A stretch of 56,658 nucleotides of DNA from a virus (IMGVR_UViG_3300045988_084830:1-56658), one strand, 5' to 3'; shown: positions 42,885-51,655, counted from the stretch's first letter. Numbers and translations: made by a program. Notes: generated by a model from the letters alone, not told the origin.

Positions 42885-43976
42885 ATGCCAGAATTGACAG
42901 GAAACAATCTTGTCGAAAAGAGCAAGGCATTGGTTTGGGCGAAGTTTACGGACTACACAGCAGGCGAGCTTCGGCTGCTTGAGGTCTATCTGAGCCGTAT
43001 CAATCCGAGAGACCCAGAAAGCTCTAACGTGTCGTTTACGCTGGCTGAATATTGCAAGCTGCTGGATTTGAAGCTCAATTCAAAGAACTTGAAGTCGCAG
43101 GTTAAGCACTTTTTGGGCAACGTGGTTTCAGTACCACTGAATGCAGATGGAACAGAATATGTGATGTATCCGCTGTTCACAAAGGCAGAGGTCAAGTACA
43201 ATCGAGAATCCTTGTCCTATGACGTTTCAATCAACTGTAATCCTGACTTGCGGCCTGTGTTTTTCGACATTGCAAGAAGCGGCTACGTCAAATACCGTCT
43301 GCGCTATACGATTGGGATGAAACAGCAAGCATCTATTCTGATGTACAGCATGATTCGAGATTGGATGAATCGCTCTCTAACATCGAACAAGATTGGTTTG
43401 AAGCAGCTGCGTGACCACTTGGGGGCAAACGATGTAAGTTATGACGACTTCCGGGCTTTACGCCGCAGAGTTCTTGAACCAGCAGTGGAAGAGATAAGCA
43501 ATGTTTCAGACATCGTCGTTGACTTTGAAAAGATTTGCACAGGGCGAAAGGTAGTAGCAGTTGAGTTTCGATTCGGGTGCAAATCCAAGCAGCCCGTCAT
43601 AGATGCCGATTCTAGCGAGGTTGATTGTGAGACGAATTCCAAGCAGGAAATCAAAAAAGCCGCAAGAAAGCCCCGCGCAAGCGGATACGAAGGGTACGAC
43701 TGGTCTGTGTGCGATGCTCTATCCGTTCAAGAGTGCATCGAGGTTGCAAAGGTTGTCGAGGTAAAGATGATGGAAGAACACCCATCTATCAAGCTGCCGA
43801 AGCGGAGAGATGCGGTCTATGACATCGTAAAGGCCGCGTGTGCAGATATTCTTTCAATCAGCCGTGACCCTTGGCCTGATTACCCGAAGCGGTATCTGAT
43901 TGGCAGCTTGAAGAAAGACGGTGCGATTGAAGAGTATCTTCCGGCTTTCTATGAGATTGATGCATTGCAAAAGTAG
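42885..43976 (+). CDS. rep: Rep_3-family plasmid replication initiator
   Basis: The N-terminus NNLVEKSKALVWAKFTDYTAGELRLLEVYLSRI matches the Rep_3 signature. Iterons lie immediately upstream. Confidence 0.8.
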   Translation: MPELTGNNLVEKSKALVWAKFTDYTAGELRLLEVYLSRINPRDPESSNVSFTLAEYCKLLDLKLNSKNLKSQVKHFLGNVVSVPLNADGTEYVMYPLFTKAEVKYNRESLSYDVSINCNPDLRPVFFDIARSGYVKYRLRYTIGMKQQASILMYSMIRDWMNRSLTSNKIGLKQLRDHLGANDVSYDDFRALRRRVLEPAVEEISNVSDIVVDFEKICTGRKVVAVEFRFGCKSKQPVIDADSSEVDCETNSKQEIKKAARKPRASGYEGYDWSVCDALSVQECIEVAKVVEVKMMEEHPSIKLPKRRDAVYDIVKAACADILSISRDPWPDYPKRYLIGSLKKDGAIEEYLPAFYEIDALQK

Positions 43977-44321: not shown

Positions 44322-44573
44322 ATGGAAAAAGTTCAAAGTTCCGTTTTATACAGAGAAGTGGCGAAATTGCGAAACGGCTTTGATTGTAACAGAGTTGAGT
44401 TTTTCACCGTTGGGGACGGAATTGATACTCCAATTCATGTAATGGTCGGTTCTCGTGGACACGGCACTGTAGAACCAGACGAAGCAATTGAGGAAGGAAA
44501 GGCGCTAATTGAAGCTGGTAAGGCAGCAAAAAAATTTAAGTACAACGGTTATTTTGTGATTTGGGGAGAATAA
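44322..44573 (+). CDS. Hypothetical protein
   Basis: 83-aa ORF. Confidence 0.5.
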   Translation: MEKVQSSVLYREVAKLRNGFDCNRVEFFTVGDGIDTPIHVMVGSRGHGTVEPDEAIEEGKALIEAGKAAKKFKYNGYFVIWGE

Positions 44574-44575
44574 AA

Positions 44576-45346
44576 ATGGCAAAAATCATAGCTGTCGCCA
44601 ACCAGAAGGGCGGCACAGGAAAAACCACCACAAGCACCTGTCTGGCTGGTGCGTTGCAGTTGCTCGGAAAGAAAGTCCTGCTGGTGGACTGCGATGCCCA
44701 GTGCAACGCAACAGACACCTACGGCGCACAGACAGTGGACGTGTGCACCCTGTTTGATGTGATGACTCGGCAGGGCACTGTCGAAGAAGGAATCCAGCAC
44801 TGTGAAGCTGGCGATATTCTTCCATCTGACCCAGACTTGAAAGATATTGATGAGCAAATGGTAAGGGATATTGGCAAGAACTTTCGGATGCGTGAAGAAC
44901 TGGAGCCGGTATCTAGCCAGTATGATTACATCATTCTTGACACACCACCGCAACTTGGATTGATGCTTGTAAATGCTCTGATCGCAGCCAATAGCGTTAT
45001 TGTGCCGATGACCCCCGACCGCTATTCTGTCGCTGGTTTAAGCCAATTGTCACAGACCTTGAGCGGCGTTCGCAAATATTACAATCAGAATTTGAAGATT
45101 GAAGGCCTGCTCCTGAACCAGTACAAGAGCCGTGAGAACCTGTCCAAAGAGGTTGTGGAGCAGCTTCCTGTGATTGCACAGAGCATGGGAACAACGCTGC
45201 TGGATGTGAAGATTAGACCGTCTATGGGCGTTCGTAAAGCACAGGCAGAGCGGCACAGCCTGTTTAGTAGCGACACGGCAAAGAGTACCAGCGCAGAGGA
45301 TTTCAAGGCGTTGGCAAAGATTATTGTAGAAGGAGAAGAAAAATGA
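44576..45346 (+). CDS. parA: ParA/Soj-type partition ATPase
   Basis: MAKIIAVANQKGGTGKTTT carries the deviant Walker A motif. 256 aa. Confidence 0.9.
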   Translation: MAKIIAVANQKGGTGKTTTSTCLAGALQLLGKKVLLVDCDAQCNATDTYGAQTVDVCTLFDVMTRQGTVEEGIQHCEAGDILPSDPDLKDIDEQMVRDIGKNFRMREELEPVSSQYDYIILDTPPQLGLMLVNALIAANSVIVPMTPDRYSVAGLSQLSQTLSGVRKYYNQNLKIEGLLLNQYKSRENLSKEVVEQLPVIAQSMGTTLLDVKIRPSMGVRKAQAERHSLFSSDTAKSTSAEDFKALAKIIVEGEEK

Positions 45347-47366: not shown

Positions 47367-47410
47367 AAAAACCCCCTGTACGGAATTATAACCGTATAGG
47401 GGGTTGCTTT
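47367..47410. terminator. Bidirectional intrinsic terminator between convergent modules
   Basis: 12-bp stem CCCCCTGTACGG/CCGTATAGGGGG flanked by an A-run and T-rich sequence. Confidence 0.6.
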
Positions 47411-48047
47411 ACTTATCAGCAATGCAATCCCAGTAGAGATATGCCTTGCCATCTGCGGCATCTGCGTCCTCAAGGAACGCCTTTGCCATATCAGCGTAGA
47501 AGCCCGGAGTGTCAACGGACTGACGCTTTGCGACCTGACAATAATCCGAGTACATCATGTTCATAACAGCCCAGAAATCGTTCGGGTCACAGGTGATATT
47601 GCGCTGTTTCGCAACGTCCTGTGTCTGTTCCAACGTCCAGTGACAGCCCTTCGTGCCGTCAGCATTCACCATGCTGTCGCACCATTCCTCAGCTTCATCG
47701 TGGGTGAGGTGCTGGCGTGGCATCTTGATGGAACGGCTATCTGCACCGCCATGCTCATACTGCCCAGCCCGTTTATCCCAGTCGCCGTTCTGCGAGAAGC
47801 CGATTTGCGGCATTCTGCGCCCATTCTCTACGTCAGGATAGCGGGGGATAGGGTAGGGGTCGATGTAGCGGTTCTCCTCCTGCGGATAGTAGGGATAGCG
47901 GTCGTTGCCACCTTCCAGCTTGCGCAGACGGCGTTCCATCTCGCGCTCCCTGCGGTCACGTTCTTCCTCAAGGCGGTCACGTTCCGGCTCACGGTCTTTG
48001 TCGTGGTCACGGAGCATCATCATGCGGCGAAAATTAGTCTTGCCCAT
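47409..48047 (-). CDS. Cargo operon gene 6: hypothetical protein (charged RE/DE and Pro/Tyr-rich N-half, globular Cys-containing C-half)
   Basis: 212 aa with an SD (GAGGAGG). Contains ...RYPYYPQEENRYIDPYPIPRYP... and ...NADGTKGCHWTLEQT...MNMMYSDYCQVAK.... Confidence 0.6.
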   Translation of the reverse strand: MGKTNFRRMMMLRDHDKDREPERDRLEEERDRREREMERRLRKLEGGNDRYPYYPQEENRYIDPYPIPRYPDVENGRRMPQIGFSQNGDWDKRAGQYEHGGADSRSIKMPRQHLTHDEAEEWCDSMVNADGTKGCHWTLEQTQDVAKQRNITCDPNDFWAVMNMMYSDYCQVAKRQSVDTPGFYADMAKAFLEDADAADGKAYLYWDCIADK

Positions 48048-48060
48048 AATCTATACCTCC

Positions 48061-48432
48061 TCAAGAAATGGACGCAGGTGCGCCGGCGTGGGAACGGCAG
48101 AAGCAGCCAAGATACTTGAACGTGCCGGTGCCGGTCGCAGACGTTGCCACGCGGGTAGCGTAGCGGGTGCGGGTGTGGATGCTCTCGGCGGTTGCCTGAG
48201 CGCAGTTGCAGTCGGTCAGAGGGTATGCGGTCGTTCCTGCACCGATGGTGATGACCACAGGGGCGTTGATGGTGGTCGTGTCCGGGATGCTCTGGGCAAC
48301 CACGATGCAATACTTCTCTCCGTTCTGGTATGCGCCAGCAGGGATGTTGATGGTCAGCGTGTCATTGGCGAACGTCACCGCATCCGAGATGACGAGGTGC
48401 GGGCACAGACGGCAGCTTGTTTTGCAAGCCAT
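48061..48432 (-). CDS. Cargo operon gene 5: hypothetical Cys-rich protein
   Basis: 123 aa with 8 Cys, starting MACKTSCRLCPH. Preceded by an SD (AGGAGGAAAA). Confidence 0.6.
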   Translation of the reverse strand: MACKTSCRLCPHLVISDAVTFANDTLTINIPAGAYQNGEKYCIVVAQSIPDTTTINAPVVITIGAGTTAYPLTDCNCAQATAESIHTRTRYATRVATSATGTGTFKYLGCFCRSHAGAPASIS

Positions 48433-48446
48433 AATGTTTTCCTCCT

Positions 48447-48482
48447 AAAAAATCAGGGGCAGAGGTGTCTTACCCCTGCCCC
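48447..48482 (-). terminator. Internal terminator/attenuator hairpin in front of gene 5
   Basis: GGGGCAG...CTGCCCC followed by TGATTTTTT on the minus strand. It overlaps the SD of gene 5. Confidence 0.45.
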
Positions 48483-48517
48483 GATGGTTCACCCGGTGTT
48501 ATCGGGGAGTGTGTTGG

Positions 48518-49387
48518 TTAGCAGCCGCAGCAGTTCACGCCCATGTTGGGGTTTGCCACCTGATAAGCGGGAATCGGACGAGGATTGACCCGGTTCAGGA
48601 TGGTATCAGTCTGCTGGGACATCACGGTGGTCAGAAGCGCATTCTGACGATCCTGAGAAGCCGCGAACTTTAAGCTCTGGTTCTCAGCGGTCAGAGTAGC
48701 AATCTTGTCCTGCGTGAAGTAGTCCATCATGCTGCGGAAGTTGGCGTTGCAGTTGTCCACGATGGCGCGGGCGTTGTCTGCGATAGCCTGACGGGTAGCG
48801 CAGTCCTCCGTTGCGATGGTGTACTTCAGGTCGCCGATGAGCTGTTTGTTCTCGCAGCAGCAAGATGCAAGCTGCGTCTGGATGGCGGTCTGACCCGCCT
48901 GCCGTGCGTTGCCCTCCTGCATGATGGCAAGGCTGATGGCGTTGTCGCCGTTGGACACGCTGCGTTCCAGACCGTTCACCAGCTGTGCGTTCTGGTAGCC
49001 AAGCTGACAGATGGCGCTGTTCACGCCCGCAAAGCCGTTCGCGATGTTGGCGTTGATGCCATTGATCTGCGCCAGCTGGTCATAGCCCAAAGAGCAGATA
49101 CCGCTCTGGATACCCGCCAGAGAGCGGGAGGTATCCTGCTGATAGAAGCCCTCAGACAGAGCCGCGCGGGTGTCGTTACCGCCCTGACCGGATGCGCCAG
49201 TGCCGACCAGATAGGGGATGTAGGCGTTCATGCCATTGTCGCCGCCGTTGCGCCCGTTGCCGTAGTTGCCCCAGCCGAAGATGATGGCAAGGATGATAAC
49301 AGCCCACAGACCTTCGTTGCCGAAGAATCCGCCGTTGTTATTGCCGCCGTCCTGCCCAGCCAGATAGCCAGTTGCAAAATCGTCCAT
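48518..49387 (-). CDS. Cargo operon gene 4: hypothetical protein (MDDF start, Gly/Asn-rich, single TM, CCC motif, ends NCCGC)
   Basis: 289 aa with an SD (aaaggag). TM segment LWAVIILAIIFGW. 11 Cys. Confidence 0.6.
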   Translation of the reverse strand: MDDFATGYLAGQDGGNNNGGFFGNEGLWAVIILAIIFGWGNYGNGRNGGDNGMNAYIPYLVGTGASGQGGNDTRAALSEGFYQQDTSRSLAGIQSGICSLGYDQLAQINGINANIANGFAGVNSAICQLGYQNAQLVNGLERSVSNGDNAISLAIMQEGNARQAGQTAIQTQLASCCCENKQLIGDLKYTIATEDCATRQAIADNARAIVDNCNANFRSMMDYFTQDKIATLTAENQSLKFAASQDRQNALLTTVMSQQTDTILNRVNPRPIPAYQVANPNMGVNCCGC

Positions 49388-49527
49388 AACAAAACTCCTT
49401 TCAGTTTTGCGTTATGCTATCCCACCGCCGTATGCGATGGGCGAAGCCAAACAAATGCGGTTTTTGTCAAGTCCGCAAAACTGAGAAGCGTTTCGCTTAG
49501 AGGGATGCTTATTTTAGGGTTGTTAAG

Positions 49528-49689
49528 TCAGCTTGGAGGGTTGTCCTTTTTATCTTTTGGGTCATCCCAATTTTTGCCGGCAGCACCGAAAATAAAGCCA
49601 AGCATTAAAGGAACCCATATTTTGTCATTGCCGCACAGATTGTTGATGTCAAAATCTTTTTCGGAATGGCTGTTTTCAAAATCATCCAT
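49528..49689 (-). CDS. Cargo operon gene 3: 53-aa TM peptide (MDDF start)
   Basis: Manual ORF MDDFENSHSEKDFDINNLCGNDKIWVPLMLGFIFGAAGKNWDD... preceded by an SD (GAGGAGG). It falls below the ORF-track cutoff. Confidence 0.45.
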   Translation of the reverse strand: MDDFENSHSEKDFDINNLCGNDKIWVPLMLGFIFGAAGKNWDDPKDKKDNPPS

Positions 49690-49701
49690 TGTAAAGCCTC
49701 C

Positions 49702-49953
49702 TCACTTCGGAAGCGTCAAATTCAGGACGCTTGCCAGCTGGTTCAGGTCGATACCACGCTCTTTGGCGAGGTTCTGCGCCATCGTTCGGAGTTGTACTTC
49801 GTTTTTTCCCTGAATCAAGTTCAAGCCCTGCATGATAGGAGCATTCTGCCCGCTCAACTGCTGGATAAGCCCCATCGGGTTTTGTCCGGCACGAGCAAGG
49901 TTTGCAAGCTGCATGATAGGGCTGTGAGTAATCATATCAAACGGAGAGGGCAT
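49702..49953 (-). CDS. Cargo operon gene 2: hypothetical protein
   Basis: 83 aa, with an SD (aaaggaga). Confidence 0.55.
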   Translation of the reverse strand: MPSPFDMITHSPIMQLANLARAGQNPMGLIQQLSGQNAPIMQGLNLIQGKNEVQLRTMAQNLAKERGIDLNQLASVLNLTLPK

Positions 49954-49956
49954 CGC

Positions 49957-50475
49957 TTATTCTCCTTTCTTTGCTGCGGTAGCGGGCTTCGAAAAGCTCT
50001 TCTGCCACTTTTCCAGTTCATCCAGCCGATGCACGAGGGTGTTGTACTGCTCAATAGGCACATATTGCTGTGTCGGTGCAGCGGTCTGCTGTGCCTGCTG
50101 TGCTTGCATCTGTCTCCACGCTTCCGGGCTGTAAAACTCTAACACGTCAGATTCACAAGTATTTGGATTCAGACGTTTGCAGTAGATGACACCACTACGC
50201 AAATCCGGGCAATACGTCCATCTTCCGTACAGATCAGACGGTATCGCCAAAAATTCTTCCCTGCTGGAAACAGGTCTACCAAGCAACCAGCCGCCATCTT
50301 GTGCTGACTGCTGAACAGGCTGCTGCCCATTCATCGGCTGCGGACGCTGCGGTTGTGCCTGCTGCATCTGCGTGTTCGGCAGGGGAGTGGAAAGACCTAC
50401 CGTGCCCATGCTGCCGTAAGGATTGACAGGTTGCTGCGGAACGTAAGGCGCTCCGGGTGTTGGATAATAGCTCAT
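49957..50475 (-). CDS. Cargo operon gene 1: hypothetical protein with a Gln/Pro-rich N-terminus
   Basis: ATG at 50475 follows AGGAGGG. MSYYPTPGAPYVPQQPVNPYG.... 172 aa. Confidence 0.6.
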   Translation of the reverse strand: MSYYPTPGAPYVPQQPVNPYGSMGTVGLSTPLPNTQMQQAQPQRPQPMNGQQPVQQSAQDGGWLLGRPVSSREEFLAIPSDLYGRWTYCPDLRSGVIYCKRLNPNTCESDVLEFYSPEAWRQMQAQQAQQTAAPTQQYVPIEQYNTLVHRLDELEKWQKSFSKPATAAKKGE

Positions 50476-50548
50476 AATACATCCCTCCTGATGTGACCAG
50501 TGTACCGCATCGGCAGAAAACGAAAGACAACGAAGGTACAACGAAGGA

Positions 50549-50592
50549 CAAAAAAAGAAAAGCGCCCACACGGAGAAATCCGCATGAGCGCT
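50549..50592 (-). terminator. Leader terminator T2
   Basis: AGCGCTCA...TGGGCGCT followed by TTTCTTTTTTT on the minus strand, about 75 nt before the start of gene 1. Confidence 0.6.
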
Positions 50593-50678
50593 TAACTGTA
50601 AGGATGCACACATTGGAGTGCAATGCTAAGATATCACATAATCCAATATATGGCAATGCTTTCGACAAAACTAGTGCG

Positions 50679-50714
50679 AATAAAACAAAATCCACCAGCC
50701 TAAAGCTGATGGAT
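50679..50714 (-). terminator. Leader terminator T1
   Basis: ATCCATCAGC-loop-GCTGGTGGAT followed by TTTGTTTTATT on the minus strand. Confidence 0.6.
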
Positions 50715-50912
50715 TATAAGTGAGCGAGTAATCGCCCTGCCACCGAAGTGGCAAAATTGTGTCTCCCGCATGGTACGCACTGTAAGTAGGCGGGCGGGAG
50801 ACTGGTCGGCGCCTATCTGGCAACCGCTTTTTTCATTCCCAGATAAAGCACTGGGCTAGCTGGCAAATATCCACCCTGTTGCGCTTCTTCGAGAGGCCGG
50901 GTGGATTTCGTT
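50679..50912 (-). ncRNA. Structured leader RNA or sRNA of about 230 nt (class unassigned)
   Basis: It is bounded by a TG-extended -10 promoter and terminator T1. It contains several 8-9 bp hairpins, including UGCCAC-UUCG-GUGGCA. No ORF is present. Confidence 0.45.
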
Positions 50913-50918
50913 GGTGTT

Positions 50919-50927
50919 ATTATACCA
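50919..50927 (-). promoter_or_regulatory. Extended -10 promoter TGGTATAAT
   Basis: The minus strand reads tttgTGGTATAATaac, immediately after the upstream terminator. Confidence 0.5.
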
Positions 50928-50936
50928 CAAATCGTG

Positions 50937-50972
50937 CAAAAAGAAAAGCGGCAGACCCGAAAGCCTGCCGCT
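50937..50972 (-). terminator. Intrinsic terminator after the sigma-region-4-like gene
   Basis: AGCGGCAG...CTGCCGCT followed by TTTTCTTTTT on the minus strand. Confidence 0.65.
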
Positions 50973-51016
50973 TCAATGCGTTTCGTGAGAAATCGCACCC
51001 AATTAAGATTATGATA

Positions 51017-51340
51017 TCACACATCCAGCATTTTTTCAATGCTTTTTAGCCGGTATCCTATCGCCGTCCGGCTGTAATGCGTCTGCGCTGCAATGTCCGG
51101 CAGCGGGAGCCGCTCAACGTACCGCAAAAGAGCTATCTTTCGGTCTACCCTCCCAAGCGGTGCGTTTTTGATGGCGGCGGTCATCTGCTGTCGGTCAAGT
51201 CCTTGCAGCGCAGCGGGCAGCACTACACGAGCCGCCGCCACAGGCAGCACCGAGCCAAAAAGGCTGCGGCAGCTGTCCGGCGTTGCGCTTAGATACGCAT
51301 TTTGCCATATTAAGACCGCAAATTTGCAATTTTTTATCAA
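51017..51340 (-). CDS. Sigma-70 region-4-like / DUF1492-like HTH regulator
   Basis: C-terminal RKIALLRYVERLPLPDIAAQTHYSRTAIGYRLKSIEKML. The start codon is uncertain (TTG at 51340, or an internal ATG). Confidence 0.45.
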   Translation of the reverse strand: MIKNCKFAVLIWQNAYLSATPDSCRSLFGSVLPVAAARVVLPAALQGLDRQQMTAAIKNAPLGRVDRKIALLRYVERLPLPDIAAQTHYSRTAIGYRLKSIEKMLDV

Positions 51341-51424: not shown

Positions 51425-51655
51425 TTAGATTTCAACCTTGCCGTTTTCATCGTACACGTCAAACCACTCTTCGCAGTATTCGTGCACGCGCTCACGCAAA
51501 CTCTTAATGTACCTGAGAGACTTGCAGGTATATACCTTCATACCCTGATACTTTCCATCAAGCCCGGTAAAAGTACCGCGATAAAAGCGCCCCATTCCTT
51601 TGGCTTTATAGATGGAGCGAGGTTCGTCCATTTCTGTGTTTTTGAGATAATACAT
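51425..51655 (-). CDS. Hypothetical protein
   Basis: 76-aa ORF preceded by an SD (aggaggg). Confidence 0.5.
   Translation of the reverse strand: MYYLKNTEMDEPRSIYKAKGMGRFYRGTFTGLDGKYQGMKVYTCKSLRYIKSLRERVHEYCEEWFDVYDENGKVEI

Follow-up and report, generated by a model that had tools for sequence, protein, structure and literature searches.

What do six small genes do that lie behind the lysis genes of a tailed phage and resemble no phage function that can be named? The question is raised by positions 47409-50475 of IMGVR_UViG_3300045988_084830, a viral DNA of 56,658 nt (hereafter the window, meaning the whole stretch analyzed) that is a complete tailed-phage genome, plasmid maintenance genes included. 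A first-pass annotation made from the sequence had described these genes (g1 to g6) as an insulated cargo operon and a candidate, possibly undescribed, lysogenic-conversion system. In this study, comparison with other viral loci indicated that g1, g2, g4, g5 and g6 are this phage's copy of an order-conserved module that is spread across tailed viruses of gut anaerobes. The conserved and insulated system is apparently without prior description, as had been suspected, and it is the role in spores or in lysogenic conversion that had to be given up; the function that we put first, if only tentatively, is one at the cytoplasmic membrane.

The six genes are co-directional on the minus strand and all lie where they had been annotated, each start being preceded by a strong, GGAGG-type Shine-Dalgarno (SD) sequence:

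49957-50475, minus strand: g1, 172 aa
49702-49953, minus strand: g2, 83 aa
49528-49689, minus strand: g3, 53 aa
48518-49387, minus strand: g4, 289 aa
48061-48432, minus strand: g5, 123 aa
47409-48047, minus strand: g6, 212 aa

The mechanical open reading frame (ORF) of g1 reaches 50613, and its SD-backed ATG at 50475 gives the 172 aa found in homologues.

The ratio of non-synonymous to synonymous polymorphism (pN/pS), determined against 21-79 close relatives, was 0.07 for g1, 0.07 for g2, 0.18 for g3, 0.13 for g4, 0.12 for g5, and 0.06 for g6. These ratios of 0.06-0.18, together with a gene order kept in very distant loci, indicated that the six ORFs are real, and on this evidence they are read as functional genes under purifying selection. 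Further, 61 relatives whose loci reach far enough downstream were gathered via the Rep3 gene, independently of the cassette, to avoid circularity. Among them, g6 was present in all 61, g5 in 60, and g1, g2 and g4 in 59 each, while the small sigma-like gene upstream of the module was present in 54 and g3 in 23. The five genes g1, g2, g4, g5 and g6 form the core and g3 is optional; since 59-61 of the 61 relatives carry the core genes, the cassette is not patchy cargo in this lineage. Its flanks are mosaic, and the lysis genes are more diverged among relatives than the cassette itself. The lysogenic-conversion cargo that the first-pass annotation had proposed is not supported, given this fixation and the presence of the module in Bacteroides phage C3_41T2LP and in crAss-like phages, which are usually regarded as lytic.

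The same arrangement was recovered far outside the lineage. The g4 family comprises more than 7,486 clusters at 90% identity, none of them with a name or a Pfam domain. In 63 diverse loci (59 loci from GTDB genomes, two metagenomic contigs, two cultured phages and one crAss-like phage), a g1-like gene lay upstream of the g4-like gene in 54 and a g2-like gene likewise in 54; downstream, a small Cys-containing beta protein was found in 59, as was a g6-like or Arg/Asp/Tyr-rich (R/D/Y-rich) protein. All four neighbours were present in 49 of the 63 loci, and contig ends explain most of those without the full set. ORFs were clustered across loci on the coding strand only, which excludes antisense shadow ORFs. 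Conserved synteny had been proposed as a check on the annotation, its absence suggesting spurious ORFs, and the outcome was strongly positive.

Two synteny variants were distinguished, whose g1-like families are homologous (hhalign 98.3%), as are the small helix-turn-helix (HTH) genes upstream of both (clusters c6 and c14, hhalign 94.6%). A g5-family protein occupies the beta-protein slot in some loci and a protein of the phrog_20016 family, unrelated and of ~140 aa, in others; homology of the two was considered and rejected at an hhalign probability of 0.4%. The last slot holds g6, or an R/D/Y-rich protein together with either a DUF7841-like or a small HExxH protein. The parts of the module are combined in several ways, and a small Cys-His peptidase-like gene is an extra in some versions. 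Homing-endonuclease-like genes of HNH/AP2 type lie inside or beside the module in three phage lineages that are not related to each other (L003 8954-9778, 11407-12303 and 14139-15011; L005 9079-9873; L006 4907-5527); such insertions may help to explain its horizontal spread.

The carriers are mostly Clostridia (Oscillospiraceae, Lachnospiraceae, Acutalibacteraceae, Ruminococcus and one Anaerotruncus colihominis isolate), and further copies were found on contigs binned as Bacteroidales, Bacilli and Mollicutes. The module is carried by Butyrivibrio phage Ceridwen, by the plaque-isolated C3_41T2LP, in which a 133-aa protein of the module matches DUF7841 (E = 5.3e-16), and by many crAss-like phages, where the g4 homologue is annotated as "spike protein/glycoprotein" or "outer capsid protein/viral fiber"; phages of sipho, myo and podo type are all represented. 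Viruses assigned to Methanomassiliicoccales have g4 only. One of these, Caudoviricetes sp. vir215 (L148 3152-4186), carries a solo g4-like gene with two CCC motifs and without the Cys/Gly tail, placed downstream of a reverse transcriptase gene, possibly a diversity-generating retroelement, and upstream of an integrase. A search of a plasmid collection with g5 gave no match, and publications on DUF7841, on the crAss "spike" and "fiber" annotations and on Methanomassiliicoccales viruses, of which the literature coverage was incomplete, included none that describes the module.

This distribution bears directly on the spore reading, according to which the genes would supply a sporulating Clostridia host with spore-coat-, exosporium- or envelope-like proteins by lysogenic conversion. 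The Cys-, Gly-, Tyr- and Gln/Pro-rich composition had suggested it, Clostridia are numerous among the carriers, a collagen-repeat protein adjoins the module in relatives, and the order of holin, lysin, sigma-like gene and then cargo is compatible with it. However, the module also occurs in phages of Bacteroides, in crAss-like phages and on Mollicutes- and Bacteroidales-binned contigs, all with non-sporulating hosts, and g4 occurs in viruses assigned to the likewise non-sporulating Methanomassiliicoccales. The proteins carry no secretion signals and show no similarity to the coat and exosporium families of Pfam and NCBIfam or to an ExsY sequence, and the sigma-like protein is only an HTH protein of region-4 size. 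The reading is largely refuted by the distribution, and we consider it highly improbable.

Consistent with the first-pass annotation, which could name no virion, lysis, replication, lysogeny or defence family, scans of the six proteins and of distant members against Pfam, NCBIfam, PHROGs and PADLOC returned only DUF7841 and PHROGs without a function. Pfam and NCBIfam gave no match for g1-g5, coat families included, and no PADLOC-DB defence model was significant for the six proteins or related members (best, PDC-M39B, E = 0.041). Sequence and profile searches of the PDB with g4, g5, g1, DUF7841 and phrog_20016 yielded nothing significant, the only echo being an insignificant one of the DUF7841 profile to φX174 H (E = 0.58). 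For direct comparison, the sequences of λ Rz, E. coli PspA and an ExsY protein were entered by hand. Against these, hhalign gave probabilities of 0.5% for the g4 alignment with Rz, 0.1% for g4 with PspA, and 0.1% for g5 with ExsY. A membrane remodeller of the PspA/ESCRT-III type was rejected, as no profile similarity was found and neither PspA nor Snf7 of Pfam matched g4.

The g4 protein consists, in order, of an acidic N-tail, a short hydrophobic helix, a Gly/Asn-rich linker, ~180 residues of long helices, a Pro motif and a Cys/Gly tail. It starts with MDDF, contains CCC and ends in NCCGC, as had been annotated, and its near-invariant parts are two "GxCxLGY" ("GICxLGY") repeats, the CCC, "PxPxPAYxVxNPN" and the Cys/Gly tail. 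Over 60 homologues, the N-tail averages 35 aa with 1.2 Lys/Arg vs. 3.65 Asp/Glu, and the hydrophobic core of ~13 residues is flanked by Trp and Gly. The AlphaFold2 (AF2) model has helices at 26-36, 85-146 and 151-267 with a predicted local distance difference test (pLDDT) score of 51, a value to be expected when an oligomeric coiled coil is modelled as a monomer; the model is too poor for a fold search. The protein matches phrog_16490 (E = 3.5e-39) and is only 33-46% identical to copies on Bacteroidales-binned contigs. The optional g3 is a single-pass protein that also begins with MDDF and has an acidic N-tail, one short hydrophobic helix and a Lys/Asp-rich C-tail; by its sequence it is read as a truncated look-alike of the g4 N-terminus. 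A similar 67-aa gene was seen in L003.

The most conserved member is g5, which is 60-66% identical to copies on Bacteroidales-binned contigs. Its 123 aa contain the eight Cys counted in the first-pass annotation, of which Cys7, Cys10, Cys42 and Cys77 are invariant and Cys3 nearly so, giving CX3CX2C; the four invariant Cys plausibly form a metal site. The AF2 model is all-beta (pLDDT 69). Foldseek found no match to it in the PDB, and in BFVD it found uncharacterised phage homologues and weak echoes of fibre ends (template modelling score 0.4-0.5, E 0.03-0.3). The protein is almost always stand-alone, at ~120-180 aa (368 clusters at 50% identity).

The low-complexity N-halves noted for g1 and g6 were also found. 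In g1, a Gln/Pro/Tyr-rich N-tail is followed by a beta domain of ~50 aa ("GRPVSSREE...IYCKRLNPNT"), a C-terminal amphipathic helix and a basic tail; it matches phrog_21718 (E = 6.2e-9), as do 17 of 20 diverse g1-like proteins. In g6, the disordered N-half is rich in Arg, Asp, Glu, Tyr and Pro, and residues 109-202 match DUF7841 (PF25223) at E = 4.9e-26 and 91.7 bits (cut-off, 25.2). The small, helical g2 is rich in Met, Gln, Asn and Pro and has a C-terminal "AKERGIDL" motif resembling a helix-extended-helix; BLAST found 30-47% identity to the gene at the same position of distant loci, and Pfam gave weak echoes only (XPC-binding, E3_binding, Rho_N and HRDC). Neither a signal peptide nor a lipobox was found in the soluble proteins of the module.

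The module lies, as first annotated, between the lysis cassette plus sigma-like gene and a bidirectional terminator. The elements around and within it are:

51017-51340, minus strand: small sigma-70 region-4-like HTH gene, 107 aa, just upstream of the module
51039-51011, minus strand: sigma-70-like promoter match, leader region
50476-51016, minus strand: leader of 541 nt between the sigma-like gene and g1
50974-50945, minus strand: hairpin T1 with U-tract, leader
50715-50689, minus strand: hairpin T2 with U-tract, leader
50656-50628, minus strand: second sigma-70-like promoter match, leader region
50593-50560, minus strand: hairpin T3 with U-tract, leader
49388-49527, minus strand: g3-g4 intergenic region with an 8-bp hairpin upstream of the g4 SD, read from the sequence
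48456-48482, minus strand: g4/g5 terminator-like hairpin with U-tract, -23.4 kcal/mol, z -4.65
47370-47405, no strand assigned: bidirectional terminator closing the module, -21.9 kcal/mol, z -5.9

The five hairpins range from -16.5 to -26.2 kcal/mol and from z -4.7 to -7.7; for T1-T3 in particular, the values are -16.5 to -26.2 kcal/mol and z -5.2 to -7.7 relative to shuffles. With terminator hairpins on both sides, the module is, as far as such predictions carry, a separately insulated transcription unit. Its "own promoter and a leader of about 450 nt" had to be amended: two promoter-like sites are present, but the gap measures 541 nt and holds three terminator-like hairpins. T3 follows the promoter-like site at 50656-50628 within ~60 nt, and its region is 95.9% identical across relatives, above its surroundings. 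No Rfam family was above threshold in the leader or the intergenic regions, and T3 has a sub-threshold match to ctRNA_pGA1 (E = 0.32); positions 50547-50660 on the minus strand could be an attenuator or a small RNA instead of a simple leader. The hairpin before g5, which had been predicted and was found again at z -4.7, may plausibly cause differential dosage; its region is 98.8-98.9% conserved in relatives, above the flanking genes, but only 7 of 33 distant loci have a hairpin at this position. Likewise, the 150 nt at the g4 start (49500-49351) are 97-99.5% identical in 79-80 relatives, above coding sequence. These two non-coding stretches that are more conserved than the genes point to regulatory RNA or DNA elements. 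At ~47400, coverage by relatives drops from 65-70 of 80 to 1-10 of 80, a sharp homology boundary at the end terminator. Residues 45-105 of the sigma-like protein match sigma-70 extracytoplasmic function (ECF) models weakly (17.7 bits; cut-off, 42.9), with another weak match to the transcriptional regulator phrog_36. A full sigma factor of the TcdR/UviA group, with regions 2 and 4, was not found, the 107-aa protein aligning to region 4 only.

Similar layouts were found in distant loci. Among the 41 with enough upstream sequence, at least 22 have a lysin or holin at most 4.5 kb upstream and 29 a small HTH gene upstream of the module, and lysis-proximal placement was also seen in Ceridwen and in the crAss-like cr116_1. 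Of 23 clean HTH-to-module junctions, 17 carry a terminator-like hairpin, which in many cases runs directly into a TATAAT-like element; in L089 and L090 this is TTGAAA-18-TGgTATAAT, a near-consensus extended -10 directly before the module.

From these data, the role that we favour, at well short of an even chance, is that g4 forms a membrane-tethered, cytoplasm-facing coiled-coil stalk that recruits signal-less partners, g5 among them, and acts for the phage late in infection. The hydrophobic helix of g4 would insert in the cytoplasmic membrane with the acidic N-tail outside, and the stalk of ~180 residues would project into the cytoplasm, ending in the Pro-rich motif and the Cys/Gly tail; this N-out, C-in orientation is suggested by an acidic N-tail without positive charges and by partners without export signals. 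On the stalk, the signal-less partners would assemble: g5 as a tetra-Cys beta protein that is probably metal-bound, g1 with its small beta domain, helix and Gln/Pro/Tyr tail, the Met/Gln-rich g2 as a possible chaperone for the hydrophobic helix, and g6 with its charged disordered half and DUF7841. Most speculatively, the complex would serve the phage as the lytic cycle ends, on the cytoplasmic side of the membrane, either in the control or completion of egress and lysis or as a membrane platform for late steps, and it would not convert the host surface or spores. A function that benefits the phage and has phage-internal or universal partners, such as the membrane, is suggested by the fixation in the lineage, the strong constraint, the 60-66% identity of g5 between host groups and the range of hosts with entirely different envelopes, while the position behind lysis genes, the terminators and the small HTH gene suggest late, controlled expression. 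Put more broadly and with the same reserve, the module may be an unrecognised multi-protein machine of tailed viruses of gut anaerobes (Bacillota and Bacteroidota), in which a coiled-coil stalk, a metal- or iron-sulfur-binding tetra-Cys protein and phase-separating low-complexity partners carry out a host-independent step at the cytoplasmic membrane that known phage systems leave unaccounted for. The g4 anchor of such a machine would also be present in the methanogen-assigned viruses.

Several observations weigh against this proposal. The searches above gave no homology or fold match to a characterised lysis, egress or assembly protein; the g4 model has the low pLDDT of 51, its hydrophobic segment is short for a transmembrane helix, and its topology is derived from charge only. 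The near-consensus promoter in L089 and L090 suggests constitutive or lysogen expression and not a strictly late one. In C3_41T2LP, the module lies among recombination and replication genes and not beside lysis genes. Finally, deletion variants on long contigs indicate that the module is not absolutely essential. These variants are in-frame chimeras (fibre::g4, g1::g4 and g1::g6) that recur in metagenomes, some on 30-55 kb contigs (P0067, P0054, P0072, P0069, P0303-P0309; locus L008 1699-3066), and by their sequences they are read as deletions of the cassette with differing junctions, which suggest frequent recombination between low-complexity or coiled-coil stretches.

Some of the same observations fit a moron-type operon that would exclude superinfecting phages or act as a gatekeeper at the membrane. 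Lysogens and infected cells would express it from the operon's own promoter, and a g4 complex anchored in the membrane would keep rival phages from bringing in their DNA or from completing other steps there. This is the main rival, a serious one that we nevertheless regard as doubtful. The layout of terminator, promoter-like (extended) -10, genes and terminator is autonomous, near-consensus promoters exist in some loci, a membrane anchor is present, the module is dispensable as the deletion variants show, and its parts mix and match (g5 or phrog_20016; g6 or an R/D/Y-rich protein with a peptidase). The module also stands at a prophage edge, beside host genes, in L002. Against it, the module is fixed and not patchy in the lineage, and strong purifying selection and a g5 that keeps 60-66% identity across host phyla are unlike arms-race genes. 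Five conserved proteins would be unusual for known exclusion systems, no PADLOC model matched, and the plaque-isolated Bacteroides phage and crAss-like phages carry the module too. In L001 and L002, which have a distant copy of the module, a short FtsK/SpoIIIE-family ATPase (253 aa) lies beside an HTH switch region (L001 15625-16386; L002 12809-13570), and these elements showed no structural genes in the 16-19 kb fetched.

The absence of signal peptides and the place right after lysis genes could also be read in terms of effectors, bacteriocin-like or matrix-forming, that are released by lysis and act outside the cell. The Gly-rich hydrophobic N-terminus with a long helix recalls colicins or fusion peptides, and the combination of sigma, holin and cargo recalls the UviA/bcn and TcdR loci. 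No toxin, immunity or enzyme domain was detected, and conservation across host phyla is unlike a target-specific weapon. We consider such an effector set very unlikely.

An accessory virion component deserves more weight, although it is still unlikely in our judgment. Here g4 would be a coiled-coil fibre or a membrane-penetrating, pilot-like protein and g5 its knob, with the remaining proteins serving assembly or lying inside the particle. The module follows the structural and late genes in the same orientation, and adjoins head genes in cr116_1; others have annotated the crAss-like homologues as spike/glycoprotein or outer capsid/fiber. The G+C content is ~58% in the 48001-49000 bin (g4-g5) vs. 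42-54% in most bins, the lysin bin being equally high at 58.4%. The g5 model bears a weak likeness to the C-terminal portions of fibre-like BFVD proteins, and a Gly-rich hydrophobic N-terminus before a long coiled coil recalls the φX174 H pilot protein, yet the sole PDB echo, that of DUF7841 to H, is the insignificant one above. A fibre role of g4 had been suggested by P0067, P0054 and P0072, which join a tail-fibre N-terminus and collagen repeats to the g4 C-terminus, and was rejected: in relatives, the collagen fibre has a gene of its own (564 aa), and the fusions arose by deletion between this gene and g4; they are not native fibres and do not show g4 to be one. Moreover, g5 is almost never a domain of larger proteins, its similarity from one host phylum to the next is too high for a receptor-binding tip, the module is not tied to any one of the sipho, myo and podo types, and in C3_41T2LP it lies outside the structural block. 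Functions that were not thought of take the remaining probability.

The surrounding genome of the window was also inspected. Its structural and lysis set includes a terminase, an SPP1-type portal, an E-type major capsid protein, a Gp10_C baseplate protein and a GH25 endolysin, and a tape-measure-sized ORF is present. The late genes on the minus strand run from the terminase through the tail and around the window ends to 56579-53150, followed by the lysis genes. The other features are:

42885-43976, plus strand: Rep3 initiator (Rep3_N and Rep3_C), nearest plasmid homologue in Mediterraneibacter gnavus, 35%
44561-45346, plus strand: ParA-like gene, assigned from its Walker-type translation, no domain scan
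53172-52375, minus strand: GH25 lysin, downstream of the late genes
52378-51989, minus strand: holin-like gene, after the GH25 lysin
52005-51667, minus strand: second holin-like gene
51425-51655, minus strand: 76-aa ORF between the holin-like and sigma-like genes

With Rep3 and a ParA-like gene within a complete tailed-phage genome, the element looks like a phage-plasmid. No integrase was found among the few window proteins scanned, the whole window not having been scanned for one, and no tRNAs were found in the window. The 76-aa ORF is common to none of 80 relatives. Many relatives have, between the holin-like and sigma-like genes, the 564-aa collagen-repeat fibre-like gene (in L076, 2603-4297) and a 74-aa ORF; the window is without this collagen-repeat gene. 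Long ORFs of 159-227 aa at 47640-48588 (plus strand) and 48020-48310 (minus strand) are antisense to or overlap g4, g5 and g6; they are shadow ORFs of a G+C-rich coding strand, conserved only as mirrors of g4 and g5.

A constrained set of five proteins without an assignable function represents a sizeable piece of gut-virome dark matter. The phage-plasmid lineage in which the set is fixed has turned up in human gut viromes more than 100 times, and the set is also carried by crAss-like phages, the most abundant human gut viruses. Finding its function would annotate thousands of genes together and could bring to light a step of phage biology that only anaerobic gut viruses have, for example one at the membrane that depends on metals or redox state. 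The function is directly testable in two cultured phage-host pairs, Ceridwen on Butyrivibrio fibrisolvens DSM 3071 and C3_41T2LP on Bacteroides uniformis; together with the distribution and the degree of constraint, these pairs make the module a worthwhile experimental target.

How does the module compare with known systems? DUF7841 and PHROGs 16490, 21718 and 20016 exist as single-protein entries without a function, and their linkage into one module was not found described. With ExsY/CotY and BclA it shares small Cys-rich beta proteins, Gly/Tyr/Gln-rich partners and, in relatives, a collagen-repeat neighbour, but it lacks sequence similarity and export signals and is widespread in viruses of non-sporulating hosts. 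Similar to φ29 p16.7 and EzrA, g4 is predicted to pair a single-pass anchor (N-out, C-in) with a coiled coil in the cytoplasm that could organise partners at the membrane; the likeness is architectural only, g4 has no recognisable DNA-binding domain, and its gene occupies a late and not an early position. With the λ Rz i-spanin and the XhlA-type proteins of Gram-positive phages, g4 shares an N-terminal membrane segment that leads into a long coiled coil in which Cys are conserved, as well as a location near holin and endolysin genes. The Rz-type i-spanin has type II topology (N-in, C-out), a positive N-tail and an outer-membrane lipoprotein partner. In contrast, g4 is about twice as long and of opposite predicted topology, with a cytoplasmic stalk and no lipoprotein partner, and some phages with the module infect monoderm or wall-less hosts, in which a spanin would serve no purpose; a two-component i-spanin was rejected, since homology, topology, lipoprotein partner and host type all fail. 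A parallel in organization is offered by phage morons and accessory operons, for example prophage-end genes for toxins or exclusion, likewise terminator-bracketed units with promoter-like elements that follow holin and lysin genes and sometimes stand at a prophage edge. No module protein can be placed in any known family of toxin, exclusion or defence proteins, and what sets the module apart from morons is its five co-inherited, conserved proteins, its fixation in the lineage and its spread across host phyla.

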